Assembly (NCBI RefSeq): GCF_002116905.1
Contig: NZ_CP015118.1
Coordinates: 4,548,351 to 4,612,350 of the forward strand
From: Piscinibacter gummiphilus
Lineage (GTDB): Bacteria > Pseudomonadota > Gammaproteobacteria > Burkholderiales > Burkholderiaceae_C
DNA length: 64,000 nt
Direction: 5' to 3'
Part shown: positions 5,774 to 41,248 of the stretch, piece by piece
Layout: each line of letters opens with the position of its first letter
How positions within the stretch are numbered: the stretch's first letter is position 1
Notes under the pieces: generated by a model
The model's input: only the letters and a program-made list of their open reading frames with translations
Told to the model about the DNA's origin: nothing
Database searches by the model: none
Program-made: the position numbers and the translations under genes

Positions 5774-7099
5774 TCAGTCCGCGATCATCCCCGACCGCTG
5801 CCCCGGCTCCACGACGACCCGGTCCAGCGCCCGCAGGGGCCGCACCAGCGCGGACGACGGCTGCACCGGGCACGACCCGGTCTGCAGGTACGACAGCGCG
5901 GCCGCCGTGAGCGTTTCCGTCGCGTCGCCCAGGTTCTTCGAGAAGTCGTCCTTCACGGCGCAGGTGAGCGGCAGACCGCTGTAGTACTTGCCCTGGCCGG
6001 CGGCATTCAGGCTCTCGAAGTTGACGAGGCTGTAGACGTTGTCGCACACGTCCTGCGGCGAGAAGCCCACCGGCTTGCCGCAGCTGGCGCTGCCGATGGT
6101 GACCACGGTGGCGTACGGCTTCAGGCCGTTGACGACCATCTCGCTCGCCGAGCACGTGCGCGGGCCGGTCAGCACCACCACGCGCGGGAACGCGGTGCTG
6201 CCCTGGTTCGTGAAGGTGTAGTTCGCGTCGCGCAGCCCGCTGATGGGGTTGTAGGCCAGCCGCGTGAACAGAGCTCCCGCCCGTGTGGCGCCGGTCACCA
6301 GCGACCCGAGGTGGGTGGCCGTGGAGACGCGGCCGCCGCCGTTGTAGCGCAGGTCGAGGATGAGTTCGGTGGCACCCGCCTGGCGGAACTGGGTGATGGC
6401 CGCGGTCAGCGGGGCTTCGGCCTGCGTGACGAAATCCTTCAACGACAGGTAGCCCGCCTTCGCGCCGCCGGGCAACGTGAACACGGTGTTGGCCGTGACC
6501 GGCACGAGGTTGTAGCGGGCGCCGGTGAGCGTGACCGTGCGCTGCGCGCCGTTGGTCTCGAGCACGAGCGTCAGCACGTCGCCCTCGCGGGTGGGCGACA
6601 GCGAGGCGAAGTTGCCCGACTGCACGAGCTGCGAGGCCGCGATGCCGTTGGCGGCCACGACCGTGTCGCCGCGGGACACGCCCGCGGTGGCCGCCGGGCT
6701 GCCCGGGTCGACGTACCGCACCTTCAGCGGCAGCGTGCCCTCGGTGCCGTTGACGGAGACGCCGTAGCCGAGCGTGCGCCCCTCGACGAAGAACTCGTCG
6801 AAGGCGGAGCGGCTCTCGATGTAGCTGAAGCGGTCGCGCGGTTCGCTGGCATCGCCCTGGAACCGCAGCGCGTCGAGGTAGGCCTCGGGGTCGGCGTACC
6901 CCTCGGGCGACGGCGTGGGCGACTTGCCGGCCCAGAAGTAGTACTTCGCCATTTCGCCGCGCAGCCAGAGCTTCTCGTTGTTGATGGTGCACGCGAAGGA
7001 CTTGCCGTCCTCGTAGTAGTCGTAGTCGTCGTCATCGCCGCCGCAGCTGGCCAGCAGGGCGAGCGCCGCGCAGGCCGCCGTTCGAAGCAGAAATCGCAT
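5774..7099 (-). CDS. S41 family peptidase lipoprotein (tail-specific protease-like)
   Basis: [21 protein letters not shown] lipobox; S41 core [11 protein letters not shown] ... [11 protein letters not shown]. Only the last 441 aa of track ORF 5774..9211 are real; the upstream part is antisense to valS. Confidence 0.75.
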
Positions 7100-7219
7100 G
7101 CAGGATCCTCCAGAGACCTCCCACGATATCAGCCCGGCGGCGGCACCTACAATCGACCCTTCCCCCGTTTCAGCCTGTTTCACCGAACCACCCCGCCCGG
7201 GGGCGTCCGGACCCGCACC

Positions 7220-25927: not shown

Positions 25928-26830
25928 ATGAACAAACGTTCCGACCTGACCGCACGCAACTTCCCTTCGGCCCAGCAGGAGGCCGGCAAGGCCGTCCCGC
26001 AGACCAACTACGACGGCCCTGAAAGCGCCTACCGCCTCGCCTTCACCGACACCGATTTCCTGCTGCGCCAGGAACTGCGCCCGGTGCGCATGCAGCTCGA
26101 GCTGCTCAAGCCCGAGATGCAGCAGCAGGAACTGGGCATCGAGAGCACCATCGTCATCTTCGGCAGCGCCCGCATCGTGCCGCGCGACACGGCCGAACGC
26201 CTCGTCGCCGACGCCACCTCGGCCGGCAACCCCACCGCGCTCGCCATCGCGAACCGCCACCTGGTGATGTCGCGCTACTACGAGGAAGCCCGCCGCTTCG
26301 CCGAGATCGTCACCACCCGCTCGCGGTCGATGACCACGCCGCTGTACGTCGTCACCGGCGGCGGCCCCGGCATCATGGAAGCGGGCAACCGCGGCGCGTT
26401 CGAGGTGGGCGGCAAGAGCATCGGCCTGAACATCGTGCTGCCGCACGAGCAGGCGCCGAACCCGTACATCACGCCGGAGCTGTGCTTCCAGTTCCACTAC
26501 TTCGGCCTGCGCAAGATGCACTTCCTGATGCGCTCCATCGGGCTCGTGTGTTTCCCGGGCGGCTTCGGCACGCTCGACGAAATGTTCGAGGTCATGACGC
26601 TGATGCAGACGGGCAAGTGCCGCCGCCGCCCCATCCTGCTGTTCGGCAAGGAGTTCTGGACGAAGCTCATCAACTTCGACTGGCTCGTCGAAACGGGCAT
26701 GATCAGCGAACTCGACCTGCAGCTGTTCAAGTTCGTCGAGACGGCCGAGGAAGCGTGGGACATCCTCGACGCCGAATACGGCTTCAGCCTGCACGAGAAT
26801 GAGAAGGGCGGCGCGTCCGCCGACATCTGA
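25928..26830 (+). CDS. LOG family protein (Rossmann-fold nucleotide/nucleoside phosphoribohydrolase-like)
   Basis: VVTGGGPGIMEAGNRGA ... GGFGTLDEMFE, the characteristic LOG/TIGR00730 motifs (GGGxGxM and PGGxGTxxE). Confidence 0.8.
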   Translation: MNKRSDLTARNFPSAQQEAGKAVPQTNYDGPESAYRLAFTDTDFLLRQELRPVRMQLELLKPEMQQQELGIESTIVIFGSARIVPRDTAERLVADATSAGNPTALAIANRHLVMSRYYEEARRFAEIVTTRSRSMTTPLYVVTGGGPGIMEAGNRGAFEVGGKSIGLNIVLPHEQAPNPYITPELCFQFHYFGLRKMHFLMRSIGLVCFPGGFGTLDEMFEVMTLMQTGKCRRRPILLFGKEFWTKLINFDWLVETGMISELDLQLFKFVETAEEAWDILDAEYGFSLHENEKGGASADI

Positions 26831-26876
26831 TCCCGTCCGTCAACCACCTCAGGCATCGCCTGGAAAGGGGCCCGCG

Positions 26877-27797
26877 ATGAACCAGCCAGTCAGCCTCATC
26901 GGCGCCCCCACCGACGTAGGCGCGGGCACCCGCGGGTCCAGCATGGGCCCCGAGGCGCTGCGGGTCGCCAACATCGGCCCGGTGCTCGCCAGCCACGACC
27001 TGGACGTGGCAGACCGCGGCAACCTCTCCGGCCCGCCCAACCCCAACCTGCCGCCCGTCGACGGCTACCGGCACCTCGCCGAGGTGCAGGCCTGGAACAT
27101 CGCGGTGCACGATGCCGTGTACGCCGAGCTCGCGCTCGGCCGCCGCCCCATCCTGCTCGGCGGCGACCACTGCCTCGGCATCGGGTCCATCAGCGCGGTG
27201 GCGCGGTACTGCCGCGAGCAGAACCGCAAGCTGCGCATCCTCTGGCTCGACGCCCACGCCGACTTCAACACGCAGACCCTGACCCCGAGCGGCAACCTGC
27301 ACGGCATGCCGGTGGCCTGCCTGTGCGGCCACGGCCCGAAGGAGCTCGTCGAGATCGGCGGCCACGTGCCGGCCATCAGCCCGAAGTGGGTGCGGCAGAT
27401 CGGCATCCGCAGCGTCGACCAGGGCGAGAAGCGGTTCGTGCACGAGATGGACCTCGAGGTCTTCGACATGCGCTACATCGACGAGATGGGCATGCGCCAC
27501 ACGATGGAGATCGCGCTCGCCACGCTCGACGCCAACACCCACCTGCACGTGAGCTTCGACGTCGACTTCCTCGACGCCGAGGTGGCCCCCGGCGTGGGCA
27601 CCACCGTGCGCGGCGGCCCCACGTACCGCGAGGCCCAGCTCTGCATGGAGATGATCGCGGACACCGGCCGCCTCGGCTCGCTCGACGTGATGGAACTCAA
27701 CCCCGCGCTCGACGTGCGCAACAAGACCGCCGAGGTCGCCGTCGACCTCATCGAAAGCCTCTTCGGCAAGAGCACGCTGATGCGCACCCGCCCATGA
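26877..27797 (+). CDS. arginase
   Basis: Ureohydrolase motifs GGDHCLGIG, DAHADFNT, SFDVDFLD (Mn-binding Asp/His clusters); 306 aa. Confidence 0.85.
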   Translation: MNQPVSLIGAPTDVGAGTRGSSMGPEALRVANIGPVLASHDLDVADRGNLSGPPNPNLPPVDGYRHLAEVQAWNIAVHDAVYAELALGRRPILLGGDHCLGIGSISAVARYCREQNRKLRILWLDAHADFNTQTLTPSGNLHGMPVACLCGHGPKELVEIGGHVPAISPKWVRQIGIRSVDQGEKRFVHEMDLEVFDMRYIDEMGMRHTMEIALATLDANTHLHVSFDVDFLDAEVAPGVGTTVRGGPTYREAQLCMEMIADTGRLGSLDVMELNPALDVRNKTAEVAVDLIESLFGKSTLMRTRP

Positions 27798-28576
27798 CCC
27801 CGGCCCTGAAAGAGCGCCGCAAGGTCGCCGTCGTCACCGGATCCTCCTCGGGCATCGGCGCCGCCACCGCCCGCCTCTACGCGCGCAACGGCTGGAACGT
27901 CGTCGTCAACTTCTCGCGCAAGCCCGAACCCGCGGAGGCGGTCGCCGCCGAATGCCGGGCGTTCGGCGTCGAGGCACTCGTGGTGCAGGCCGACATCGCC
28001 TCGGAGGCCGACTGCCGGCGCGTCGCCACGGAAGCCGAAGCCGCGTGGGGGCGAGTCGACGTGCTCGTGAACAACGCCGGCACCACGAAGTTCGCGCCGC
28101 TGAAGGACCTCGACGCCGTGTCGGCGGAAGACTTCCACGCCATCTACGACGTGAACGTCGTGGGCACGTACCAGATGACCCGCGCGCTCGTGCCGCTGAT
28201 GAAACGCACGCCGGGCGGCGGCATCGTCAACGTCTCGTCCATCGCGTCGATGATGGGCCGCGGCTCGTCCATCGCCTACATGGCCTCGAAGGGTGCGCTC
28301 AACGCGATGACCATCGCCCTCGCGCGCGCACTGGGCCCCGAGCTGCGCGTCAACGCCATCGCCCCCGGTTTCGTCGAGACCCCCTGGCTGCGCGAGGGCC
28401 TGGGCGCCACCGGCTACGAGCAGGCCCAGCGCGCCTACCGCGACACCGCCACGCTCGGCGCCGTCATCCAGCCCGAGGACGTGGCCGACGCCGCGTGGTG
28501 GCTGGGAGCCGGCGCGTCCAAGACCACGGGCGAGGTGATCCTGCTCGACGCGGGGGTGCGGCTGGGCCGGGCCTGA
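27794..28576 (+). CDS. SDR family oxidoreductase
   Basis: TGSSSGIG (TGxxxGxG), NNAG, and YMASKGAL (YxxxK active site). Overlaps the arginase stop (ATGA). Confidence 0.8.
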   Translation: MTPALKERRKVAVVTGSSSGIGAATARLYARNGWNVVVNFSRKPEPAEAVAAECRAFGVEALVVQADIASEADCRRVATEAEAAWGRVDVLVNNAGTTKFAPLKDLDAVSAEDFHAIYDVNVVGTYQMTRALVPLMKRTPGGGIVNVSSIASMMGRGSSIAYMASKGALNAMTIALARALGPELRVNAIAPGFVETPWLREGLGATGYEQAQRAYRDTATLGAVIQPEDVADAAWWLGAGASKTTGEVILLDAGVRLGRA

Positions 28577-28690
28577 GGTCCCCGCCACAACTGCTCACCA
28601 CTCCCCCCCTTCGGAGTGGTTGACATGTTATGTCGCGAGCCCTACGCTGCAACGCATGGGGCCGCGTCGGCTCCTGCAACGAGAGGAGCC

Positions 28691-29107
28691 ATGAAACCAC
28701 TTCACGAGCAGTTGTTTCGCCTCGACGACCACCTCGGTCGCCTGATGGGCAAGGTCGCGGTGCAGCTGCAGCCCATCCCCGGCGAGGTGCCCGTCGTGCA
28801 GGTCAACATCGGCGGCCGCGACGAGCTGCCGATCTTCATCACGCGGTCCGACACGCAGATCCTCTGCCTCTGCTACCTCTGGACCGACGCCGAGGTGAAG
28901 CCCGCGCGCCGCAACGAACTGGCGCAGACGCTGCTCGAACTCAACCCCTCCGTGCCGCTGTCGGCGTTCGGTCGCATCGGTGACCGCTACGTGCTGACCG
29001 GCGCCCTCGCCATCGACGCCCCCGTCGAAGCCGTCGCGCAGGACGTCGCGGTGCTGAGCGACAACGCGCTCGACGCCCTGGACGCCCTGTCCGAGTTCCT
29101 GGAATAG
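28691..29107 (+). CDS. DUF2170 family protein (E. coli YjfI-like)
   Basis: LPIFITRSDTQILCLCYLW ... SVPLSAFGRIG ... YVLTGALAIDAPVEAV ... LSDNALDALDALSEF is collinear with the YjfI pattern (INILFTSRQMIIETFICP ... YIVFGALSL ... LVDNALDLAEI); 138 aa. Confidence 0.7.
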   Translation: MKPLHEQLFRLDDHLGRLMGKVAVQLQPIPGEVPVVQVNIGGRDELPIFITRSDTQILCLCYLWTDAEVKPARRNELAQTLLELNPSVPLSAFGRIGDRYVLTGALAIDAPVEAVAQDVAVLSDNALDALDALSEFLE

Positions 29108-29116
29108 GAGAGCCCC

Positions 29117-29830
29117 ATGTCCGTGATCAAGAGAGTGGTGACCCTGCTGCGCGGCAGCGTGCGCGAGATCGGTGAAAGCGTGGTCGACGCCAACGCCACC
29201 CGCATCTACGAGCAGGAGATCGTCGACGCGCGCCAGGCCATCGTGGCCGCCCGCAACGACCTGACGATGGTGATGGCCAAGGAGATGCAGAGCGCCCGCG
29301 AGATCGAGCGCCTGCAGCAGGAGGCCGCGCGCTACGAATCGCTGGCCGTCGAGGCGCTCGACAAGTCGCAGGAGTCGCTGGCCGAGGAAGTGGCCGGCCG
29401 CGTGGCCGCGCTCGAGGAGGAACTCGCCGGCCAGACGAAGGCGCATGCGGCCTACGCGCTGCAGGTGGTCAAGCTGAAGGACCTGGTGCGCACCGCCGAG
29501 CAGCGCATCCGCGAACACGAACGCGAGATCGGCATCGCGAAGACCACCGAAAGCGTCTACCGCGCCACCCGCTCCATCTCGGAGAACCTGGGCAGCGGCG
29601 GCTCGCGCCTGCTGAACGCGCGCGAGTCGCTCGAACGCATCAAGCAGCGGCACGAGGAACTGGCCGACCGCATGACCGCGGCCGACCAGCTGGAAGGCGA
29701 ACTGGGCCATGGCGCACTCGACCGCAAGCTGCGCGAGGCGGGCATCGGCGAACAGGCCGACCGCCAGCGCGACGCGATGGCGCGCATCCGCGCCCGCGCG
29801 GCCACGCGCACGGCTCCCGCGGCCGAATGA
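29117..29830 (+). CDS. PspA/IM30 family protein (YjfJ-like)
   Basis: All-helical and coiled-coil-rich, with an N-terminal MSVIKRVVTLLRGSVREIGESVVDANATRIYEQEI typical of PspA/IM30/Vipp1-family starts; 237 aa. Confidence 0.8.
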   Translation: MSVIKRVVTLLRGSVREIGESVVDANATRIYEQEIVDARQAIVAARNDLTMVMAKEMQSAREIERLQQEAARYESLAVEALDKSQESLAEEVAGRVAALEEELAGQTKAHAAYALQVVKLKDLVRTAEQRIREHEREIGIAKTTESVYRATRSISENLGSGGSRLLNARESLERIKQRHEELADRMTAADQLEGELGHGALDRKLREAGIGEQADRQRDAMARIRARAATRTAPAAE

Positions 29831-30171
29831 CCGTGCGGCAGAAGCCGGCCCGCTGGACCTCGTCCGACGAGGCGATCCGGGCCGTCCAGGTCGCCTTCGA
29901 CGTCGAGGAGGCCGTGCTGCAGGCGGTGCGCCAGGCGGCGTTCGAGAACCACCTCTCGAACTCCGACCAGATCCGCAAGCTGCTCGACCTGCCCACGGCC
30001 GAGAAACCGAAGCGGCCGCGCCTGACCGTGTCGCTGAGCCCGGCCGACTATGAGCTGCTGGCGAAGCGCTACGGGCTGGCGGGCGACGACCGGCTGACCA
30101 TCAAGGAGCGGGTCACCGCGGAACTCATCGCCTTCGCCGGACAACCGGACGAGGGCACGCCGGCGCCATGA
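29827..30171 (+). CDS. hypothetical protein, possibly a tandem ribbon-helix-helix fold
   Basis: Two segments with a beta-strand then helix pattern (VQVAFDVEEAVLQAVRQAAF and LTVSLSPADYELLAKRYGL) suggest CopG/Arc-like RHH units. Its start overlaps the previous stop. Confidence 0.4.
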   Translation: MTVRQKPARWTSSDEAIRAVQVAFDVEEAVLQAVRQAAFENHLSNSDQIRKLLDLPTAEKPKRPRLTVSLSPADYELLAKRYGLAGDDRLTIKERVTAELIAFAGQPDEGTPAP

Positions 30172-30228
30172 CCGGCATCACGCGCGGCAGAACACAGAAC
30201 AGCGCGCGGAACCACGAGGGAGCAGGGA

Positions 30229-30858
30229 ATGGGAAACTTCTACGGGGCGGCCTTCGGCTTCCCCACGGCGATCTACACGGCGCTGCTGGGCATGGTGCTC
30301 TTCTACTGGGTGCTGGCCGTCGTCGGGGTCGTCGACTTCGACAGCAGCGGCATCGACCTCGAACTGCAGGCTGACGCCAGCGTCGACGACCTGGGCACCC
30401 TCGCCGGCTTCATCGTGGCCTTCGGCCTCGGCGGCGTGCCGTTCTCGGTCGCCATCAGCCTGCTCGTGCTGATCTCGTGGACCGTGTGCTGCCTGATCGC
30501 GATGTGGCTGCTGCCCCTCGTGCCCACGCTGCTCCTGCAGCTCGCCGCCGGCACCGCCGCCCTCCTCGGCAGCTTCGCGCTCGCGCTGCCCGCCACGGCC
30601 GTGAGCCTGCGGCCGCTGCGCCGCCTGTTCGTGACCCACGGCGCCGCCACCAACGCATCGCTCGTGGGGCAACGCTGCAGCGTGCTGACCAGCCGCGTCA
30701 CCGACACCTTCGGGCAGGCCGAGGTGCCGCGCCGCGGCGCCCCGCTCAACATCGACGTGCGTGCCGCCGAGCCCAACGTGTTCACCCGCGGCACCGCCGC
30801 CCGCATCGTCGACTACGACCCCGCCACACAACGCTATTCGATCGAACCCGAGGTGTGA
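30229..30858 (+). CDS. NfeD/YqiJ-like membrane protein (DUF1449-type flotillin partner)
   Basis: Three to four N-terminal TM helices and a C-terminal soluble OB-like segment (VGQRCSVLTSRVTDTFGQAEV...RIVDYDPATQRYSIEP). Architecture and position directly upstream of a flotillin match E. coli yqiJ-yqiK. Confidence 0.7.
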   Translation: MGNFYGAAFGFPTAIYTALLGMVLFYWVLAVVGVVDFDSSGIDLELQADASVDDLGTLAGFIVAFGLGGVPFSVAISLLVLISWTVCCLIAMWLLPLVPTLLLQLAAGTAALLGSFALALPATAVSLRPLRRLFVTHGAATNASLVGQRCSVLTSRVTDTFGQAEVPRRGAPLNIDVRAAEPNVFTRGTAARIVDYDPATQRYSIEPEV

Positions 30859-30932
30859 ACGCGCCCGCGCGCCACACCACCCCATCCATCGCTGTCACGC
30901 ATTCCAACCAATAAAGCTGAGGGAAGAAATTC

Positions 30933-33068
30933 ATGGAGCCCATCTTCATCGCCGTCGGAGTCCTGGCCCTGCTCATCCTGGGCCTGTTCGCCATGTTCGC
31001 CAAGTTCTACCGCAAGGTGGAGCAAGGCTACGCGCTCATCGTGAACACGCTGCGCGCCGACCCCGACGTCACCTTCACCGGCCACATGGTGTACCCCATC
31101 ATCCACAAGGCCGAGCTGATGGACATCTCCGTGAAGACCGTCGAGATCGACCGCTCGGGCAACCAGGGCCTGATCTGCAAGGACAACATCCGCGCCGACA
31201 TCAAGGTGAAGTTCTTCGTGCGCGTGAACAACACGGCCGACGACGTGCTGAAGGTGGCCCAGAACATCGGCTGCGAGCGCGCGTCGAACCACGAGACGCT
31301 CGAGGAGCTGTTCTCGGCCAAGTTCTCCGAAGGCCTCAAGACCGTCGGCAAGAAGATGGACTTCGTGGACCTGTACCAGGACCGCGCCCACTTCCGCGAG
31401 GAGATCCTGAAGGCCATCGGCGGTGACCTGTCCGGCTACAAGCTGGACGACGCCGCCATCGACTACCTCGAGCAGACGCCGCTGCACAAGCTCGATTCGA
31501 ACAACATCCTCGATGCCCAGGGCATCCGCAAGATCACCGAACTCACCGCGGTGGAGCACGTGCGCACGAACGAGCTGCGCCGCAACGAGGAGATGCAGAT
31601 CAAGAAGAAGGACGTCGAGGCGCAGGAGACGCTGCTGGAGCTCGAGCGCCAGCAGTCCGACGCCCAGTCGCGCCAGAAGCGCGAGGTGGCCTCGGTGCGC
31701 GCGCGCGAGGAAGCGGAGACCGCCAAGGTGCAGGCCGAGGAGCAGGCCAAGACCGAGCTCGCCCGCCTGAACACCGAGCAGGTCGTGTCGGTGCAGCAGG
31801 AGAACGTGCTGCGCGAGAAGGAAGTGGCCGAGAACAACCGCAAGCGTGCGGTGGCCATCGAGGAGGAAAAGGTCATCCGCGCCCGCCAGCTCGAGATCGT
31901 CGCGCGCGAGAAGGAAGTGACGCTGCAGCAGATCGACAAGGAAAAGGCGGTCGAGGTGCAGAAGAAGGCCATCGCCGACGTGATCCGCGAGCGCATCGTC
32001 GTCGAGCGCACGGTGGCCGAGCAGGAGGAGGCGATCAAGGACGTGCGTGTGGTGGCCGAGGCCGACCGCACGAAGAAATCCACGATCATCATGGCCGAAG
32101 GCCAGGCCGAAGAGAAGCTGGTGCTGGAGGTGAAGGCCGCCGAGGCCCAGGAGCGCCGCGCTCGCCACAAGGCCACCGAGGAGCAGACGCTCGCCGAGGC
32201 CCGCTTCAAGGTCGCCGAGCGTGACGCCGAATCGAAGAAGCGCGAGGCCGAAGGCCTCACCGCCATCGCCGCCGCCCCGGGCCTGGCCGACGCCCGCGTG
32301 CTGATCGCCAGCGCCGACGCGAAGGAGAAGCAGGGCCTCGTCGACGCCAAGGTGGAACTCGCGCGCGCCGAAGCGCTGCTGAAGACCGGCCAGGCCACCG
32401 CCACCGTGGTGGAAGCGACCGCCATGGCGGAAGCCTCCGGCCTGCGCGCGAAGCTCGAGGCCGAGGCGCAGGGCAAGGAAAAGCTGGGCATGGCCGAGGT
32501 GTCGGTGCGTGCCGCCGATGCGGACGCCGCGCTGAAGTCGGGCCAGGTCGACGCCCAGGTGGTCGAGGCCAAGTTCAACGCCGAGGCGAAGGGCCTGCGC
32601 GAGAAGTTCGAGGCCATGAAGGCCATGGGCCCGGACACCCGCGCGCACGAGGAGTACCGCATGCGCCTCGAGATGGCGCACGTCGAGACGCTCAAGGGCA
32701 TCGATGCGCAGACCGCCATCGCGAAGGACCAGGCCGAGGTGCTGGGCACGGCGCTCGCCAAGGCCAACATCGACATCGTCGGCGGCCAGGGCGACTACTT
32801 CGAGAGGTTCGTCAACGCCATCTCGATCGGCAAGAACATCGACGGCACCATCGCGAAGAGCAACACGCTGCAGGTCGCGTTCAAGGACCAGCTGGCCGGC
32901 AACCGCGACGTGATCGAGGACGTGCGCACGGTGGTGGGCGCGCTCGGCGACTCGACGGCCGAGCTGAAGGACCTCACCGTCTCGGCCCTGCTGGGCAAGG
33001 TGATGCGCGACGGCAGCGAGTCGCAGAAGGCCGCGCTGCAGGGGCTGCTGAACGGGTTCAAGCAGTAA
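30933..33068 (+). CDS. flotillin/SPFH (band 7) family protein, YqiK-like, extended (711 aa)
   Basis: N-terminal TM anchor MEPIFIAVGVLALLILGLFAMFAKFYRKV; SPFH core (ALIVNTLRAD ... GLICKDNIRADIKVKFFVRV); a very long Ala/Glu/Lys-rich coiled-coil (EA-repeat) region; flotillin C-terminal tail. Confidence 0.85.
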   Translation: MEPIFIAVGVLALLILGLFAMFAKFYRKVEQGYALIVNTLRADPDVTFTGHMVYPIIHKAELMDISVKTVEIDRSGNQGLICKDNIRADIKVKFFVRVNNTADDVLKVAQNIGCERASNHETLEELFSAKFSEGLKTVGKKMDFVDLYQDRAHFREEILKAIGGDLSGYKLDDAAIDYLEQTPLHKLDSNNILDAQGIRKITELTAVEHVRTNELRRNEEMQIKKKDVEAQETLLELERQQSDAQSRQKREVASVRAREEAETAKVQAEEQAKTELARLNTEQVVSVQQENVLREKEVAENNRKRAVAIEEEKVIRARQLEIVAREKEVTLQQIDKEKAVEVQKKAIADVIRERIVVERTVAEQEEAIKDVRVVAEADRTKKSTIIMAEGQAEEKLVLEVKAAEAQERRARHKATEEQTLAEARFKVAERDAESKKREAEGLTAIAAAPGLADARVLIASADAKEKQGLVDAKVELARAEALLKTGQATATVVEATAMAEASGLRAKLEAEAQGKEKLGMAEVSVRAADADAALKSGQVDAQVVEAKFNAEAKGLREKFEAMKAMGPDTRAHEEYRMRLEMAHVETLKGIDAQTAIAKDQAEVLGTALAKANIDIVGGQGDYFERFVNAISIGKNIDGTIAKSNTLQVAFKDQLAGNRDVIEDVRTVVGALGDSTAELKDLTVSALLGKVMRDGSESQKAALQGLLNGFKQ

Positions 33069-33074
33069 CCCGGC

Positions 33075-36000
33075 ATGGCGGACACCTCCTCCACCGACAC
33101 CACCGAACGGATGGTGGCCGACAGCGGCTCCTACGAGCTGCTGAAGAAGCGCCTCGCCGACCAGGGCGGCACGCTCCTCGAACAGGCCCGCGCGCTCAAC
33201 ACCGCGCGGCTGGCCGAGTTCGGCCGCTCCGAGCAGGCGATGATCCTGCGCACGCGGGCACGCACCGAGAACAACTGCGTCGCCCGCGACCTGGTCGTCA
33301 TCGGCGACCTGTTCCTGTTCGGCTACAACGTCTTCATCGGGCTGCGCAAGGAAACGGCCGTGGAGGACGTCTTCGCGCTGTACCGGCTGCCCGCGGCGGA
33401 CGGCGGCGACGAACTCGAATCGGTGCCGTCGGCCGGCACCTTCCTCGACGACCCGCGCTTCCTCGCCGACTTCCGCGAGCTCTACACCTACTACAAGCAG
33501 GCCACGCTGACGCAGCTGCGTGTCACGCACGACAAGCTGCTCGCGGCGTTCCAGATCGGCCAGCAGGTCAGCGACGTGCGGGTGTTCCGCTGGTCCATCG
33601 AGAACGACGGGGCGATCCGCTACACCGACAACCGCGGTGAACGCGACATCGCGCTGCCCCCGAGCCACGACTTCGAATGGACGGTGTGCACGCGCGAGGA
33701 CCACGTGGGCGGCAGCTTCCCCCACATCAACATCCTCGACACGGTGTTCGTCGAGACGCTCGGTGGCGACCTCACCGTCAAGATCGAGAACAACACCGAG
33801 ACCGGCCACGGCATCTACAGCGAGCCGGTGAGCGACCCCACGCAGTCGCTCACCGACGCCGAGGTGGCCTACGCGAAGCTCGGGCTGCTGATCCTGCTGC
33901 GGGTCAAGCCGTACCGCGAGACGCAGACGCGCTACCTCGTCTACAACACCCGCACACAGCAGGTGCAGCGCATCGACGCCATCGGCGCCTCGTGCATCCA
34001 GCTGCCGGAGGACCACGGCATCGTCTTCCCCGGCGGCTGCTACCTGCAGTCCGGCGAAACGAAGACCTTCGACCTGCCCGGCGAACTGGTGGACGCGCTG
34101 CGCTTCAAGCGCATGGTGCGTTCGCCGAACGGCGAGGACGTGCTCTACATCTTCTCGCAGCCGGCCAGCGGCCACTACGGCCTCTTCACGTACAACCTGA
34201 TCGAGAAGGCCCTGAGCCCGCCGATCGTCGTGAACGGCTACGCCCGGCTGCCCGACGGCCGCATGCTCGTGTTCCAGGCCGACCGCGGCGAACCCGTGCG
34301 TGTGCACCCGATGCAGCTGTGGCAGACGCCCTTCGCGCACGAGGAACACGCGAGCCGCCAGCCCCGGGGCACCGGCTTCTTCGGCCGCGTGGGCAACGCC
34401 GACCTCGTGCGCGGCGTGTCCGACCTGATGGGCATCGCCCGGGCCGTGCGCGAGCAGGTGCCCACCCGCGCCGCGTACGACGACCTGATCCGCCAGTGCA
34501 CCCGCCTGGCCGACGCATACTTCTGGCTCGACGCGCCCGAGGCCGGCGGCCTGCACACGACGCTGCGCGCCATCGCCGACGCGTCGCGCAACACCCTCGC
34601 CGAGTTCGAGAAGGTGGACGCCATCCGGCGCGACACCGCCCGCGCGCTCACGCAGGCCGAAGGCGCCCAACGCGCGCTCACCACCGACATCGCCAGCATG
34701 CTCTGGCGGCGTCCCGACGATTTCATGCAGGCGCTCGGCCGCCTGCGCGAGCAGCGCGGCCAGCTGCAGATGCTCCGCGAGCTGCGGTACGCCGACCTCG
34801 ACCGCATCGGTGCGATGGACGCCGAGCTCGTGGCGGAGCAGCAGCGCGTGGGCGAGCGCGCGCTGCAGTTCCTCGCGGACGAGCGGGCCTTCGACGGCCA
34901 CCAGAAGGAACTGGCACGCCTCGCCGCCGAACTGCCTCAGGCCGGCACCACGTCGCTGCTGGCCCAGGTGCTGGAAACGCTCGACGGCCTCGCCGCCGGT
35001 GTCGACGTGCTCACCGAACAGCTGGGCAACCTGCCGGGCGGCGACGCCGTCGTCCGCACCGCCATCCTCGACCGCATCTCGCTGCTCTACACCGAGATCA
35101 ACCGCCTGCGCGCCGACGCGCGCAACCGGCGCAAGACCCTCGGCTCGAGCGAGGCGGCCGCCGAGTTCGGCGCGCAGTTCAAGCTCTTCGGCCAGGCGGT
35201 CGACAACGCCCTCGAGTTCGCCGACACGCCCGAGAAGTGCGACGACACCCTCACCCGCCTGCTGGCCCAGCTGGAGGAACTGGAAGGCCGCTTCGCCGAA
35301 CAGGAAGGGTTCCTCGCCGACATCGCCGACAAGCGCGAAGCCGTGGTGGAAGCCCTGTCGGCCCGACGCCAGACGCTGGTCGACGCCCGGCAGCGCCGCG
35401 CACAGGCGCTGGTGGACGCGGCCGGCCGCATCCTCGACGGCGTGCCCCGCCGCGTGTCGCAGCTGGCCGACCTCGCGCAGGTGCACAGCTACTTCGCCGC
35501 CGACCCGCTGCTCGCGAAACTGCGCAAGCTGATCGAGGACCTGCGGGCGCAAGGCGCGGCCGTCGCCGCCGACGACCTCGACACGCGCCTCAAGACCGCC
35601 CGCGACTCGGCACTGCGCGCCGTGCGCGACAAGAGCGAACTCGTCGCCGACGACGGCAACACGCTGCGCCTCGGCCGCCACGCCTTCACGATCAACCGCC
35701 AGCCGCTCGATCTCACGCTGGTGCCGAAGGACGACGGGCTCGCCTATCACCTGTCCGGCACGGACTACCACGCGCCCGTGGACGAGCCTCGCCTCGCGCC
35801 ACTCGCCGCCTACGGGTCGCGGCCGCTGGTGTCGGAGAGCCCGTCGCTCGCCCGCGCCGAGTTCCTCGCCGGGCGCTTCCTCGAAGCCGCGCAGCGGGGC
35901 GAGGTGTCGCTCTCGTGGGACGAGTTGTCCCGCTTGGCCGGCGACGGCGCCGAGTCGCATGCGGCGCTGCTGTCGGCGCTGCGCCAGTACGCTGCCCCCC

Positions 36001-38234
36001 GCTACCAGGAGGGCTACCAGAAGGGTGTGCACGACGAGGACGCGGCCCGCGTGCTCGCCGCGCTGGTCTCGATGCAGGCCCAGGCCGGGCTGCTCGCCTG
36101 GGGCCCCACCGAGCGCGCGCTGGCCCAGCTCTACTGGCACCACGGCCGCTTCGTCGCCGAACGCGAGTCGCTGCAGCGGCGTGCCCGCGCGGCGATGCAG
36201 ATGCGCGAGCTGTTCGGGACTCGCGACGCGATGGTCCGGCTGGAGGCCGACATCGCACAGGCCCTGTCGGACTTCGCCCGCGAAGTGCTGCCCGACCTGC
36301 TGCCCGAGGACGGCGCCACCGACCGCGCGCAGCAGCTGGCCACGCTGACCCGACAGTCCGCCACGTACTTCATCCACCAGCTCGCGAGCGAACACGGTGC
36401 CGAAGCCTGGGTGCTGAGCGGCGCGGGCCAGGACCTGGCCGACGCGCTGTCGCGCGAGCTGGAACGCGGCGGCCGCCTGGCCGCCTGGTCGGCCGACCTC
36501 GACGCCGCCACCGCCCCCGAACGCTGGCGCCTCGCCCGCGACTGGGTGGGGGCGTTCGCCCGCACCCAGTCGCCCGACGCACTCGCCTGGATCGACGACG
36601 CCGCCATGGTGTTCGCCCTCCCCGGCCCCCGCGCGCGCATCAACGCCACCCTCGACGTCGCGCTGACCGGCCTGCTCGCCGAACACCCGCGCGTGGCCGG
36701 CGGCCAGCTCGCGCTGAACCTCAACGACTTCTGGCGCCGCTACCTGCACCACACCGGCCACGACGTGCCCGGCTTCGAAGCGCTGCAGGCGCTGCGCCAC
36801 GAGCTGATCGCGAAGGAGAAGACGCGCCTGCGGCTGACGCAGTTCCAGGCGAAGCCGCTGTCGACGTTCGTGCGCAACCGGCTCATCGACGAGGTGTACC
36901 TGCCACTCGTGGGCGACAACCTGGCGAAGCAGCTCGGCGCGGCCGGTGAAGGCAACCGCACCGACCGCATGGGCCTGCTGCTGCTCATCTCGCCGCCGGG
37001 CTACGGCAAGACAACGCTGATGGAGTACGTGGCGGACCGCCTGGGCCTGATCTTCGTGCGCATCAACTGCCCCGCGCTCGGCCACCAGGTCACGAGCATC
37101 GACCCGGCCACCGCGCCCAACAGCGCCGCGCGCCAGGAACTCGAGAAGCTCAACCTCGGGCTCGAGATGGGCAACAACGTGATGCTGTACCTCGACGACA
37201 TCCAGCACACGAACCCCGAGTTCCTGCAGAAGTTCATCGCGCTGGCCGACGGCACGCGCCGCATCGAAGGCGTGTGGAACGGCGAGACCCGCAGCCACGA
37301 CCTGCGCGGCAAGCGCTTCGCGGTGGTGATGGCGGGCAACCCGTACACCGAGTCGGGCGACGTGTTCAAGATCCCGGACATGCTGGCCAACCGCGCGGAC
37401 ATCTACAACCTGGGTGACGTGCTGGGCGGCAAGGAGGCGATCTTCGCGCTGTCGTACATCGAGAATGCGCTCACCGCGAACCCCGCGCTGATGCCGCTCG
37501 CCTCGCGCGACCCGCAGGACGTGCACCGCCTCGTGCGCCTGGCCTCGGGCGAGGACGTGCCGTCGAGCACGTTCACGCACGCGTACAGCGCGGCTGAACT
37601 GGAAGAACTCACCGCGCTGATGCAGCGGCTCTTCCGCGCGCGCGACCTGCTGCTCAAGGTCAACCTCGCCTACATCGAGTCGGCCGCGCAGCAGGATGCC
37701 TACCGCACCGAGCCGCCGTTCAAGCTGCAGGGCAGCTACCGCAACATGACGAAGCTCGCGGGCAAGATCACCGCGCTGATGCGCGACGACGAACTCGACG
37801 CGCTGCTGCGCGACCACTACCGCGGCGAGGCGCAGACGCTCACGACCGGCGCGGAGGAGAACCTGCTCAAGCTCGCGCAGCTGCTGGGCCGCCCCACGGC
37901 CGACGAGGACAGGCGCTACCGCGACATCCGCGACGAGTTCGTCCGGCGCCGCAAGCTGGGCGGCGACGACACCGACGGCAGCACGCGCATCGCCAGCACC
38001 CTCCTCGACGTGGCCCGCGCGGTCGACGGCCTGAAGCCGGAGGCGCCGAACGACGAGGGCCGGCGCATGGCCGACGCGCTGCTCGAGTTGTCGATCACGT
38101 ACCGCAAGATCATGGTGCCGCTGATCGCCGCCACCGAACACCGGCTGAAGCTCGACAGCTCCATCCGCGACGAGGTCGAACGGGTCGGCCGCGCGCTGGA
38201 GGACGTCAAGCGCAAGACCTCGCCGAAGGCCTGA
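33075..38234 (+). CDS. giant multidomain protein (1719 aa) with C-terminal MoxR/AAA_5-like AAA+ ATPase domain
   Basis: Walker A LLLISPPGYGKTTLMEY, Walker B VMLYLDDIQH, sensor-1 region FAVVMAGNPY (NP after sensor 1 is typical of MoxR/AAA_5). Long coiled-coil/helical central region. The N-terminal 500 aa match no motif I recognise. Start lies 7 nt after the flotillin stop. Confidence 0.75.
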   Translation: MADTSSTDTTERMVADSGSYELLKKRLADQGGTLLEQARALNTARLAEFGRSEQAMILRTRARTENNCVARDLVVIGDLFLFGYNVFIGLRKETAVEDVFALYRLPAADGGDELESVPSAGTFLDDPRFLADFRELYTYYKQATLTQLRVTHDKLLAAFQIGQQVSDVRVFRWSIENDGAIRYTDNRGERDIALPPSHDFEWTVCTREDHVGGSFPHINILDTVFVETLGGDLTVKIENNTETGHGIYSEPVSDPTQSLTDAEVAYAKLGLLILLRVKPYRETQTRYLVYNTRTQQVQRIDAIGASCIQLPEDHGIVFPGGCYLQSGETKTFDLPGELVDALRFKRMVRSPNGEDVLYIFSQPASGHYGLFTYNLIEKALSPPIVVNGYARLPDGRMLVFQADRGEPVRVHPMQLWQTPFAHEEHASRQPRGTGFFGRVGNADLVRGVSDLMGIARAVREQVPTRAAYDDLIRQCTRLADAYFWLDAPEAGGLHTTLRAIADASRNTLAEFEKVDAIRRDTARALTQAEGAQRALTTDIASMLWRRPDDFMQALGRLREQRGQLQMLRELRYADLDRIGAMDAELVAEQQRVGERALQFLADERAFDGHQKELARLAAELPQAGTTSLLAQVLETLDGLAAGVDVLTEQLGNLPGGDAVVRTAILDRISLLYTEINRLRADARNRRKTLGSSEAAAEFGAQFKLFGQAVDNALEFADTPEKCDDTLTRLLAQLEELEGRFAEQEGFLADIADKREAVVEALSARRQTLVDARQRRAQALVDAAGRILDGVPRRVSQLADLAQVHSYFAADPLLAKLRKLIEDLRAQGAAVAADDLDTRLKTARDSALRAVRDKSELVADDGNTLRLGRHAFTINRQPLDLTLVPKDDGLAYHLSGTDYHAPVDEPRLAPLAAYGSRPLVSESPSLARAEFLAGRFLEAAQRGEVSLSWDELSRLAGDGAESHAALLSALRQYAAPRYQEGYQKGVHDEDAARVLAALVSMQAQAGLLAWGPTERALAQLYWHHGRFVAERESLQRRARAAMQMRELFGTRDAMVRLEADIAQALSDFAREVLPDLLPEDGATDRAQQLATLTRQSATYFIHQLASEHGAEAWVLSGAGQDLADALSRELERGGRLAAWSADLDAATAPERWRLARDWVGAFARTQSPDALAWIDDAAMVFALPGPRARINATLDVALTGLLAEHPRVAGGQLALNLNDFWRRYLHHTGHDVPGFEALQALRHELIAKEKTRLRLTQFQAKPLSTFVRNRLIDEVYLPLVGDNLAKQLGAAGEGNRTDRMGLLLLISPPGYGKTTLMEYVADRLGLIFVRINCPALGHQVTSIDPATAPNSAARQELEKLNLGLEMGNNVMLYLDDIQHTNPEFLQKFIALADGTRRIEGVWNGETRSHDLRGKRFAVVMAGNPYTESGDVFKIPDMLANRADIYNLGDVLGGKEAIFALSYIENALTANPALMPLASRDPQDVHRLVRLASGEDVPSSTFTHAYSAAELEELTALMQRLFRARDLLLKVNLAYIESAAQQDAYRTEPPFKLQGSYRNMTKLAGKITALMRDDELDALLRDHYRGEAQTLTTGAEENLLKLAQLLGRPTADEDRRYRDIRDEFVRRRKLGGDDTDGSTRIASTLLDVARAVDGLKPEAPNDEGRRMADALLELSITYRKIMVPLIAATEHRLKLDSSIRDEVERVGRALEDVKRKTSPKA

Positions 38235-38239
38235 CCACC

Positions 38240-38932
38240 ATGGAACTTCTCCTGACCCAGATCGAACTGTCGATCGCCGACGAGCGCCTGAGCGACGACG
38301 AGAAGCGCGCCCTCACGCAGGCGCTGCGCCAGGCGTCACCGCCCGAGGAAGGGCTGCGCCAACTGCGCAACCGCGCGTTCGACCTCGTGCGCGAGCGCCT
38401 CGCGGCGTCGCCTTCGCCCGACGACGTGGCCGGCCTGCTGAAGTGGCTCGAGGGTGTCGTGCGCGCGCTGGACGTGGGCCGCGCGCCACAGGGCACGCCG
38501 GTCGCGTCGGCCTGTTTCAGTCCCGGCATGGCCTGCCTGCAGGCCATCGTCGACCGCCTGCGTGCGGCGCGGCGCCAGGCCGACCTCTGCGTCTTCACGC
38601 TGTCGGACGACCGCATCACGGCCGAGGTGCTGGCGGCCCACGCGCGCGGCGTGGCCGTGCGCATCGTGACCGACAACGACAAGGAGTTCGACGCCGGCAG
38701 CGACATCGCGCAGCTGCGCCAGGCCGGCATTCCCGTGGCCGTCGATCGCACCGACGCGCACATGCACCACAAGTTCGCGCTGTTCGACGGCACGTGGCTG
38801 CTCAACGGCAGCTACAACTGGACGCGCAGCGCGGCGCAGGTCAACGAGGAGAACCTCGTGGTCCAGAACGACCCCGGCCTCGTGCGCCAGTTCCAGGTGC
38901 AGTTCGACACCCTCTGGAAACGACTCCACTAG
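38240..38932 (+). CDS. phospholipase D-like protein with a single HKD motif (Nuc-like putative nuclease)
   Basis: HMHHKFALFDGTWLLNGSYNWTRSA is a canonical HxK(x)4D(x)6GSxN motif. Only one copy in 230 aa, as in dimeric Nuc/BfiI-type PLD nucleases. Confidence 0.75.
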   Translation: MELLLTQIELSIADERLSDDEKRALTQALRQASPPEEGLRQLRNRAFDLVRERLAASPSPDDVAGLLKWLEGVVRALDVGRAPQGTPVASACFSPGMACLQAIVDRLRAARRQADLCVFTLSDDRITAEVLAAHARGVAVRIVTDNDKEFDAGSDIAQLRQAGIPVAVDRTDAHMHHKFALFDGTWLLNGSYNWTRSAAQVNEENLVVQNDPGLVRQFQVQFDTLWKRLH

Positions 38933-38941
38933 GACCCGCCC

Positions 38942-39745
38942 ATGGCACGACCGGAATTCAACTGGAAACTTCCCCCCGAGATCACGCAGCGGCTCGGCCA
39001 TGACAGCTACGGCGCGCAGCGCGCCATCCACGAAGGCGACCACCTGCTCGTGGTGCTGCACGAGCCACCGGTGAACGAGGGCAACGAACGCGAGCACCGC
39101 GTGTTCCTGCGCGGCCCCGATGGCGCATGGCGCTTCCAGGGCGCGGAACACGGCCAGCACATGATGGCCGACCTGCTGACCCGCTACGAAACGCTGCTGG
39201 GGCAGGCCGAGCAGCAATACGCGTCGGCCGACAACGCCGACGACCTGTTCCCGCTGCTCGACCGCCTGCTGCCCACGAGCCGCGCCGCGGTCAACCTGCG
39301 CGATGCGCTGCAGCAGGCCCGGGACCGCGTCAAGGAAGACCGGCTGCTCATCACGTGGCGCGACCGCGCGGTGGACGTGGCCCGCGGCTTCGAACTGCTG
39401 CTGGCGAACGCCCGGCTCGCGCTCGACTACCGCCTCGCGAAGCAGGCCGAGGCGCAGACCCAGGCGGCGCTGGCCGGCACCCGCGCCCAGCTCAAGCTCA
39501 ACACCATCGCCGCCCTCACCTTCCCGCTGATGACGGTGGCCGCGGTGTTCGGCATGAACCTGCACCACGGGCTGGAGAACCAGGCGGGGTGGCTGTTCTG
39601 GGCGGTGTTCGCGGCCGGGCTGGCGCTGGGGCTGGTGGTGAAGTCGTGGGTGCGCGGAGCCCCGCCGCCTGCGCCGGTGAAACCCGGCGGCACGCGAAAT
39701 GCACTCGGCAAGAAGGCGAGCCCCCGTGCACGGAAAACCGTCTGA
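38942..39745 (+). CDS. membrane protein with CorA-like GMN motif (two C-terminal TM helices)
   Basis: ...LTFPLMTVAAVFGMNLHHGLENQAGWLFWAVFAAGLALGLVV: TM1, then GMN, then a short loop, then TM2, exactly as in the CorA pore. The soluble N-terminal domain is 200 aa, shorter than canonical CorA. Confidence 0.6.
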   Translation: MARPEFNWKLPPEITQRLGHDSYGAQRAIHEGDHLLVVLHEPPVNEGNEREHRVFLRGPDGAWRFQGAEHGQHMMADLLTRYETLLGQAEQQYASADNADDLFPLLDRLLPTSRAAVNLRDALQQARDRVKEDRLLITWRDRAVDVARGFELLLANARLALDYRLAKQAEAQTQAALAGTRAQLKLNTIAALTFPLMTVAAVFGMNLHHGLENQAGWLFWAVFAAGLALGLVVKSWVRGAPPPAPVKPGGTRNALGKKASPRARKTV

Positions 39746-39749
39746 CGGC

Positions 39750-40358
39750 ATGCCGGTCGTCGAGCGCCCGTTCTTCAACGTCCAGGTGTTCGCGGCCCCG
39801 CTCGACGAACTGGTGGCGAGGCTGTGCGCCGTGCCGCTGCGCGGCAAGGTCGCCCGCACCACACCGTTCGTCTTCCCGACTCAGCCCTACCACCAGGCGC
39901 CGGAGGATCCGCCGATGCTGCTGTGGACTCCATCGTGCGTGCCGGGCCTGACCGCATTCATGCCAAATGTGGGCTCCGGCTGCTATTTCATCGCTGCCTA
40001 TGCGGCCGAACGCCTGCGCATCGCAACGCTGCAGCTCCGCAGCACCGTTTCCGACGCCGAGTGGCCGATCAACGAACTGATCGCACACGAAGGCGGCGTC
40101 GAGCGGCGCATGGTCCGCGCGATGCGCGACAGCCCCCGCTGGGATTTCTGCGCGGTCGGCGATCCGCTCGCGATCGAGACCCCCTCGATGTATTCGGCCC
40201 GCCGCATCCGTGACCGCTTCCACCGCGTCGCCCTGCTCGACGCGGCGGAGCGTTGGGGTGCGCCACTGCGCGACCCGGCCTTCTGGCGCACCGACCGGAC
40301 GGCGATGACCTTCAGCAGCGACGGGATCCTGCGGCACGAGCTGGCCCGCATCGAGTGA
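39750..40358 (+). CDS. hypothetical protein (last gene of the operon)
   Basis: Start 5 nt after the previous stop; 202 aa of balanced composition. No motif recognised. Confidence 0.45.
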   Translation: MPVVERPFFNVQVFAAPLDELVARLCAVPLRGKVARTTPFVFPTQPYHQAPEDPPMLLWTPSCVPGLTAFMPNVGSGCYFIAAYAAERLRIATLQLRSTVSDAEWPINELIAHEGGVERRMVRAMRDSPRWDFCAVGDPLAIETPSMYSARRIRDRFHRVALLDAAERWGAPLRDPAFWRTDRTAMTFSSDGILRHELARIE

Positions 40359-40372
40359 CCGCGTCGGCCGCT

Positions 40373-41248
40373 TCAGGCCGCCCAGGCTTCGTTCAGCAGT
40401 TCCCGGAAAAGCACCGACAGCCGCGGCTCCGGATCCTCGCGTTCGGCACGTGACGGAACCAGGGTTTCGAGGCGAGCCAGCTCCTGCTCGATGAACCGCT
40501 GGATGGGCGCGATCTGGGGCGACAGCCCGAGCTCCGGGGTGCGGCGCTTCAACACCAGCAGGTCATCGATGGCTTCCCGCAAGCCTTCGACATCCTGGAT
40601 CGTTTCGAGCAGACGTTCGAACTCGATGGGCGCCGGCTGTTGCCGGCGCTCGAGCCAACGGACCGACAGCAACGGGCGAAGGACGTAGAAGTATTTCTTC
40701 AGGGGCACCTGCTCGGCTTGCAGGTACCCGCGGAAGTTCGTCTTGGCCATGCTGCGGTAGTGGTAGATGCCGCGCTCGACCGAATAGACCTCGGGCAGCA
40801 ATGCCCGGGCTCGGGCCGCGAAGCCACCGCGGCTCTCGTACACCAGGGGCGACTGCACCCACTCGACGAAACCCGGGTTCGACACCCGGAACAGGCGCAG
40901 CGCCTTGCGAAGGTCCCACCCGTTGATGTCCATGTCGTCGACGATGGGGTACTCGATGACGTCGCGTTGTTCTTCCAGCCCCACGGACAGATACCACTCC
41001 GGGCGGTTCACGTAGATGAAGCGCGCGTCGAAGTCGCTGTTGGGCGACGGAAAGCCCCAGGCCCGGCTGCCCGACTCCACGGCGAGCAGGACCTTGACGT
41101 CATGCTCCGCCTCGGCCCCGCGAAGCCGCTGGCGGATCTCCTCGCGCACCGCGAGTGGAACGTTCGTATCGTCAGATGGGGAGTTCGGGGCCATGCCGCT
41201 GATTCTGCCTTCGATGTCCACAACGCCCACGTCGCGCGGCGCCACCAT
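40373..41248 (-). CDS. nucleotidyltransferase-fold protein (COG3541-like)
   Basis: LLAVESGSRAWGFPSPNSDFDARFIY is the minimal NTase signature G[SG]x(9-13)Dh[DE]. Start may be the internal MAPNSP at 41194. Confidence 0.65.
   Translation of the reverse strand: MVAPRDVGVVDIEGRISGMAPNSPSDDTNVPLAVREEIRQRLRGAEAEHDVKVLLAVESGSRAWGFPSPNSDFDARFIYVNRPEWYLSVGLEEQRDVIEYPIVDDMDINGWDLRKALRLFRVSNPGFVEWVQSPLVYESRGGFAARARALLPEVYSVERGIYHYRSMAKTNFRGYLQAEQVPLKKYFYVLRPLLSVRWLERRQQPAPIEFERLLETIQDVEGLREAIDDLLVLKRRTPELGLSPQIAPIQRFIEQELARLETLVPSRAEREDPEPRLSVLFRELLNEAWAA

Follow-up and report, generated by a model that had tools for sequence, protein, structure and literature searches.

The window analysed here comprises 64,000 nucleotides of the genome of Piscinibacter gummiphilus (contig NZ_CP015118.1, positions 4,548,351 to 4,612,350), and all coordinates refer to it. 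Its listing of open reading frames (ORFs) includes one for a protein of 1719 amino acids (aa) at 33075..38234 on the plus strand, a large ATPase which is the subject of this analysis. The gene lies within a cluster of co-directional, tightly spaced genes spanning 28691–38932, which, with a candidate for YqiJ/YuaF, holds every component listed for the operon of PspA, CesT/Tir, Band-7/flotillin, AAA+, YqiJ/YuaF and phospholipase D (PLD) genes reported by Ravi et al. (mSystems 2024, PMC11237479), who proposed a role in sub-membrane dynamics. The bacABCDEF genes (PA3732–PA3727) of Pseudomonas aeruginosa are co-transcribed, have a proposed sigma-54 site, and have been linked to biofilm formation, rhamnolipid and virulence (PMC10948618); in strain PA14, PA14_16180 is the SPFH protein PaFlo3 and PA14_16160 a short NfeD protein (PMC13086221). 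The ATPase, its domains and its main partners are as follows.

33075..38234, plus strand: 1719-aa DUF3686-DUF7902-AAA_5 ATPase, BacE-like (Pfam, homologues, synteny)
33237..34325, plus strand: beta-propeller-like domain of the ATPase, aa 55–417 (AlphaFold2 (AF2) model; Foldseek; inside the DUF3686 match)
34887..35135, plus strand: DUF7902 of the ATPase, aa 605–687, within the helix-rich middle region, aa 530–1225 (Pfam E = 4e-22 and 2.5e-23)
36978..37361, plus strand: AAA+ alpha/beta core of the ATPase, aa 1302–1429 (AAA_5 match, motif conservation, model)
30933..33068, plus strand: 711-aa flotillin-like SPFH protein, BacD/PaFlo3-like (transmembrane segment, Band_7, weak Flot match)
30229..30858, plus strand: 209-aa membrane protein, NfeD/YqiJ/YuaF-like, BacC-like (hydropathy, synteny, PMC13086221)
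29117..29830, plus strand: PspA/IM30 protein (bacterial ESCRT-III-like), BacB-like (Pfam PspA_IM30 E = 1.6e-34)
28691..29107, plus strand: DUF2170/YjfI-like (CesT/Tir-like) protein, BacA-like (Pfam DUF2170 E = 7e-26)
38240..38932, plus strand: 230-aa single-HKD phospholipase-D-superfamily protein, BacF-like by position (Pfam PLDc_2 E = 1.5e-30)

The ATPase gene had been pointed out in an initial annotation made from the sequence; the ORF was re-found, and its GC contents of 0.72, 0.45 and 0.95 at codon positions 1, 2 and 3 match those of real genes in this window of about 70% GC. The N-terminal ~1150 residues, in which that annotation recognised no motif, do contain known domains. Pfam DUF3686 (PF12458) matches aa 34–483 with E = 1.3e-193 (644 bits versus a cut-off of 25; profile positions 2–448 of 448), and DUF7902 (PF25472) matches at 78.6 bits; the Pfam models AAA, AAA_22 and AAA_5 match at aa 1299–1430. 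With DUF3686 above its gathering score, DUF7902, and a single C-terminal P-loop AAA module, the protein belongs to the DUF3686 family. A search of 5.8 billion proteins yielded 5,762 homologues, the best 120 of which are collinear with the query, 68–96% identical and 1709–1776 aa long, and all originate from Burkholderiales (Rhizobacter, Variovorax, Ideonella, Hydrogenophaga). Searching with the N-terminal 530 aa alone gave 742 clusters at 50% identity, with full-length representatives of 1590–2036 aa, and homologues carry the same Pfam set. At least 585 relatives were recovered when a single genome of each GTDB species was scanned; the best 80, with identities of 45–83%, were examined and belong to Beta-, Gamma- and Zetaproteobacteria, Myxococcota, and Longimicrobium. 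Sequence conservation is high and mostly tracks taxonomy. Within Proteobacteria the family is widespread, and it has members in Myxococcota and Gemmatimonadota too; the P. gummiphilus ATPase is an ordinary orthologue in this known, named and widely distributed family, and its operon has already been described. Five loci of the Comamonadaceae Lampropedia, Delftia and Comamonas (L041, L060, L070, L076, L078) carry a gammaproteobacterial-type ATPase with 48–50% identity, as compared to about 72% for the betaproteobacterial type in Variovorax, which suggests horizontal transfer or the existence of two old subtypes.

The homologues are named “DNA repair ATPase” by the NCBI Prokaryotic Genome Annotation Pipeline (PGAP), or in some cases “MoxR-like ATPase” by the Joint Genome Institute, and Pfam describes DUF3686 as “ATPase involved in DNA repair”. 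Besides these names, weak matches to RuvB are the sole argument for a genuine function in DNA repair, and they extend over some 45 residues at the P-loop and score 16 bits, versus cut-offs of 282–299. Pfam and NCBIfam models of DNA-binding, nuclease, SMC, RecN or SbcC proteins gave no match, the conserved neighbours are membrane proteins, and a literature search found no paper naming DUF3686, or “DNA repair ATPase” together with flotillin. A true DNA repair ATPase is thus very improbable, and the protein probably acts in membrane maintenance instead. The label, which probably arose because the long helical region bears a spurious likeness to repair ATPases with coiled coils, is without support in this analysis, yet spreads through annotation.

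Re-translation confirmed the Walker A (SPPGYGKTT, aa 1306–1314), Walker B (YLDDIQ, aa 1372–1377) and sensor-1 (AGNPY, aa 1420–1424) motifs of the initial annotation, with K1312, D1374/D1375 and N1422, respectively, as the core residues; a candidate arginine finger (R1440) and a candidate sensor-2 motif (GSYR, aa 1553–1556) are located just downstream of the AAA+ core. The sequences SPPGYGKTT, DDIQ, MAGNP, PDMLxNR and GSYR are nearly invariant among the 80 genome homologues and 69 full-length representatives of the 50%-identity clusters, and are kept in the latter even though their N-terminal regions are only about 30–67% identical to that of the P. gummiphilus protein. The acidic pair of Walker B (37194–37199, aa 1374–1375) is Asp-Asp rather than the usual Asp-Glu. 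This variant occurs in all 60 of those 69 representatives in which the motif was located, and both Asp residues are kept in at least 97% of the 80 aligned sequences. That the motifs are nearly invariant speaks for an enzyme that is active and whose DD Walker B is specific to the family, and the P. gummiphilus ATPase is apparently active.

Placement of the module in the MoxR/AAA_5 clade, as initially annotated, holds for its AAA_5 part. In all 38 diverse members of the family that were compared, Pfam AAA_5 spans the entire core, and the structure model of aa 1225–1719 (predicted local distance difference test score, pLDDT, 74.7), in which the AAA+ core is followed by a long helical C-terminal part, contains a beta-hairpin at aa 1396–1409 between alpha-3 and the sensor-1 strand beta-4, that is, a pre-sensor-1 hairpin. 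The MoxR model AAA_3, on the other hand, gave weak matches in 13 of the 38 members, and none of the operon proteins or scanned neighbours matched a VWA domain, the domain expected in a MoxR partner. The module is therefore AAA_5-type and in the group carrying the pre-sensor-1 hairpin, whereas strict MoxR membership is not established. As regards the helix-2 insert of MoxR proteins, no hairpin was modelled in the loop at aa 1332–1349; a long helix at aa 1506–1538, ahead of the candidate sensor-2 motif, would be consistent with a pre-sensor-2 insert. The pLDDT in these parts is about 60–90. Assignment to the classical AAA proteins (PF00004; Vps4, p97, FtsH) is ruled out by the PF00004 match, which covers the P-loop alone (profile positions 1–38 of 131), and by the modelled hairpin; PDB profile matches to Rix7 and p97 are likewise confined to the P-loop. 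An aromatic pore-loop motif is lacking, so a MoxR-like remodeller is more likely than a threading unfoldase. Hydropathy analysis indicated no convincing transmembrane segment in the ATPase, which is predicted to be cytoplasmic.

An alternative is that the protein is an assembly chaperone in the style of CbbQ/O, NorQ/D or RavA/ViaA, which would mature or insert a specific membrane protein complex or cofactor, with flotillin as a mere platform. We regard this as unlikely, though less so than the other alternatives discussed here, since the operon encodes neither a VWA-domain partner nor an obvious client enzyme, the AAA_3 matches are weak, and the conserved partners are scaffold proteins rather than enzymes.

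Structure models were built from an alignment of homologues 68–96% identical to the query. The AF2 model of aa 1–530 (pLDDT 82.6, pTM 0.78) comprises a long helix at aa 6–49, about 25 strands at aa 55–417 arranged as six four-strand groups plus a closing strand, and a helical bundle at aa 423–529. In a Foldseek search against the PDB, the top matches of this model were all beta-propellers, with E-values of 1e-6 to 1e-4 and TM-scores of just 0.24–0.44; they include Sec12, the WD40 domains of DCAF1 and LRRK2, the six-bladed CyRPA, and TolB. We read aa 55–417 as a divergent, roughly six-bladed beta-propeller, which fits the coiled coil and beta-propeller already described for the N-terminal region (PMC11237479). 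PDB sequence and profile searches with the whole protein and three segments returned nothing for the N-terminal and middle parts, and weak P-loop matches for the AAA module. The middle region (aa 530–1225) is indeed helix-rich, but the long coiled coils proposed initially were found to a limited extent: a crude heptad scan, which is a rough check rather than a validated coiled-coil predictor, flagged just aa 720–768 and 820–862, and the 80 aligned sequences share conserved motifs unlike a coiled coil within aa 860–1020, around aa 866–900 and 976–990.

Among the 80 loci, the flotillin-like gene is located directly upstream of the ATPase gene in 76, the other four being at contig ends, and the ATPase gene also follows an NfeD-like gene in 70. 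PspA is encoded at 44 loci and DUF2170 upstream at 42; a PLD gene follows downstream in 26 cases, the gene of a 114-aa protein is present in 21, and a CorA-like gene in seven. The closest relative, a metagenomic sequence with 94% identity (L081), has the same operon gene order as the window. These counts define a constant core of NfeD, flotillin and ATPase, with PspA, DUF2170 and PLD being optional. Since flotillin and NfeD are far more constant than PspA and DUF2170, gene context points to flotillin, not PspA, as the primary partner of the ATPase, which refines the published PspA-centred view. The flotillin-like protein has a transmembrane segment at aa 1–27 and a long charged helical region; with its halves scanned apart, it matches Band_7 above cut-off (E = 4.5e-9) and, at the C-terminus, Flot weakly (E = 0.021). 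By hydropathy, the 209-aa protein is likewise membrane-bound, with a multi-spanning N-terminal half (segments within aa 7–127) and a soluble C-terminal domain; it matches no Pfam model, NfeD included, the label deriving from its position and from PMC13086221. A distance of 7 nt separates the flotillin-like gene from that of the ATPase, which is in the same frame and whose ATG follows no obvious Shine-Dalgarno sequence; translational coupling is possible.

The published primers for reverse transcription PCR across bacD/bacE were mapped to loci of the Pseudomonas group. The forward primer falls at the 3' terminus of the flotillin gene, where L046 matches it exactly, and the reverse primer within the ATPase gene, some 190 nt from its start, at a conserved TENNC motif. 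Together with synteny, this mapping identifies BacD as the flotillin and BacE (PA3728/PA14_16190) as the orthologue of the P. gummiphilus ATPase, an assignment made by gene position and primers rather than by direct alignment. BacE has been detected by proteomics (PMC10948618).

We infer that the ATPase uses ATP to remodel membrane scaffolds made of flotillin or PspA, and assign this reading a probability of about 0.5. The protein would oligomerise in the usual AAA+ manner, and its propeller or its helical region would contact the flotillin assembly, so that the ATPase would be brought to the inner membrane. Hydrolysis of ATP would then drive the assembly, remodelling or dismantling of flotillin scaffolds in membrane stress, and the ESCRT-III-like PspA scaffolds, where present, would be acted on likewise. 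Several observations weigh against such a function. About 45% of the loci have no PspA gene within 10 kb, so that PspA is no obligate substrate. The propeller model superposes badly on solved propellers (TM-score ≤0.44), the models cover aa 1–530 and 1225–1719, and with DD in place of DE in Walker B the kinetics of hydrolysis may be unusual. Deletion of paFlo3 in P. aeruginosa reduced biofilm formation by just about 20% (PMC13086221), and our literature search found no experiment on the ATPase itself.

The PLD-family protein, which contains the motif HxK(x)4D(x)6GSxN, bears on a different explanation, namely that the operon is a conflict or anti-phage system, with the ATPase as the sensor of infection or membrane damage and the PLD protein as the nuclease or lipase effector. 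Giant NTPases with propeller sensor domains do occur in defence systems, PADLOC gave weak matches of the PLD protein to the nuclease-like components DrmC, DpdK and MkoC, and the gammaproteobacterial-type version in Comamonas and Delftia suggests some horizontal transfer. However, the PADLOC matches of the ATPase, flotillin, NfeD, PspA and DUF2170 proteins are P-loop noise only, and PLD is absent from 54 of the 80 loci. The surroundings of the operon are housekeeping genes (valyl-tRNA synthetase (ValRS), Ctp protease, ThiF, LOG-family, arginase-family and short-chain dehydrogenase/reductase (SDR) proteins), the genes scanned include neither an integrase gene nor any other mobile-element gene, and conservation is high and mostly follows taxonomy. 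A defence function of the ATPase therefore appears improbable, and we retain the remodelling of membrane scaffolds as the preferred reading.

The longest ORF of the region lies antisense to the ATPase gene and the flotillin-like gene.

30834..38141, minus strand: 2435-aa antisense open frame, artefact (codon register; no TTA/CTA/TCA; inverted GC at codon positions 1/2/3; no Lys, Asn or Tyr; uncalled in the 94%-identical relative)

This frame had been dismissed initially as an artefact of codon bias, a judgement that the present data bear out. Its codon boundaries coincide exactly with those of the flotillin-like gene and of the ATPase gene, and it spans both because the two share one reading frame. 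It stays open because TTA, CTA and TCA, the sole sources of antisense stops in that register, are absent from both genes. Its GC contents at codon positions 1, 2 and 3 are inverted (0.95, 0.42 and 0.71), and its product would contain no Lys, Asn or Tyr at all. That the antisense frame is the true gene, for which its length is the only argument, is excluded for practical purposes by these properties: its openness is due solely to the avoidance of NNA codons in the sense genes, the sense product has Pfam domains and thousands of homologues, and the sense orthologue BacE has been seen at the protein level. This alternative can be considered effectively refuted. The accompanying concern that annotation pipelines might call the antisense frame and miss the gene proved unfounded, as each of the 120 closest homologues in the database is a full-length product of the sense frame, which means that pipelines call the sense frame; comparison with the annotation of L081 gave only sense-strand calls here, in the same gene order. 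The long antisense ORF is thus harmless for annotation.

Further features in and around the operon are the following.

28621..28649, plus strand: sigma-70-like promoter candidate TTGACA-N17-TACGCT (consensus match in the 114-bp intergenic stretch before the operon)
29827..30171, plus strand: 114-aa protein, no Pfam match (called as a gene in L081)
38942..39745, plus strand: 267-aa CorA-like protein, occasional operon member (weak Pfam CorA match, E = 3e-4; called in L081)

The promoter candidate is a consensus match only, and a sigma-54 consensus like that of P. aeruginosa bacA was not found upstream of the operon. The mechanical ORF of the DUF2170 gene extends from a GTG at 28616; the likely start is the ATG at 28691, which is preceded by a sequence resembling a ribosome binding site, GAGAGGAG, and the protein is called as 138 aa in the 94%-identical relative. 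The 114-aa gene, located between pspA and the NfeD-like gene, belongs mostly to a betaproteobacterial operon subtype and is absent from the Pseudomonas-type operon. The 267-aa protein, whose gene follows that of the PLD protein, has two C-terminal transmembrane segments and a GMN signature (VFGMNL), and is possibly a short channel of the CorA type that the operon has acquired. An ORF of 219 aa at 39699–40358 on the plus strand was rejected as an operon member, having no homologue in the 80 loci and being uncalled in the 94%-identical relative; it overlaps the end of the CorA-like gene, has a GC content of 0.85 at third codon positions, and is probably no gene. The next gene in that relative encodes an NmrA/epimerase-family protein on the minus strand, the likely counterpart of which is the 291-aa ORF at 40373–41248 on the minus strand of the window. 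Directly upstream of the operon, at 25928–28576 on the plus strand, are genes of the LOG/“lysine decarboxylase” family, the arginase/agmatinase family and an SDR protein. Published work has connected PspA-CesT operons with polyamine genes. However, only L081, the closest relative, has these genes next to the operon, as opposed to none of the 80 genome loci, and the adjacency is probably coincidental. The mechanical ORF of ValRS (6311–10015, plus strand) corresponds to 1234 aa, with the synthetase domains beginning only near aa 322; probably the true start is further downstream than listed, or else the protein has an unusual N-terminal extension.

Bacterial PspA/ESCRT-III-like and flotillin scaffolds are not known to have a Vps4-type ATPase, and the DUF3686 family is the obvious candidate for assembling and recycling them; in P. 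aeruginosa it is represented by BacE, whose operon is tied to biofilm formation and virulence. More tentatively, the ATPase might provide the so far missing energy source for a bacterial machine that repairs membranes by means of ESCRT-III-like protein and flotillin, i.e., a non-classical, AAA_5-type functional analogue of Vps4, an idea which has been suggested in outline in the literature already. It would dock on flotillin cages by its propeller and recycle PspA polymers, flotillin polymers or both, while the PLD protein would edit phospholipids locally.

Compared with the DUF3686/DUF7902 “DNA repair ATPase” family including BacE of P. aeruginosa, the P. gummiphilus protein is alike in collinear, full-length homology (45–96% identity), domain order, invariant ATPase motifs, and position downstream of a flotillin gene. 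Nothing substantive differs, the P. gummiphilus copy representing the betaproteobacterial subtype with the extra 114-aa gene. Unlike the bac operon of P. aeruginosa, that of P. gummiphilus is preceded by a sigma-70-like rather than a sigma-54 promoter motif. With the operon of Ravi et al. (2024) the cluster has in common the dyad of CesT/Tir-like (DUF2170) protein and PspA, the flotillin, the AAA+ protein and the PLD; in our sample of 80 loci, however, the flotillin/NfeD pair is steadier than the PspA/DUF2170 pair. The AAA_5-type core with its pre-sensor-1 hairpin is shared with MoxR AAA+ proteins such as CbbQ, NorQ and RavA, whereas their pairing with a VWA gene has no counterpart in the operon. 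Vps4 acts on ESCRT-III, and FtsH pairs with the HflK/C SPFH cage. The ATPase of P. gummiphilus is not a classical-clade AAA protein and has no MIT domain, protease domain or transmembrane anchor, but the Vps4/ESCRT-III and FtsH/HflK/C systems provide a working analogy, in that an AAA+ ATPase is combined with a polymer of the ESCRT-III superfamily (PspA) or with an SPFH assembly (in part after PMC11237479).

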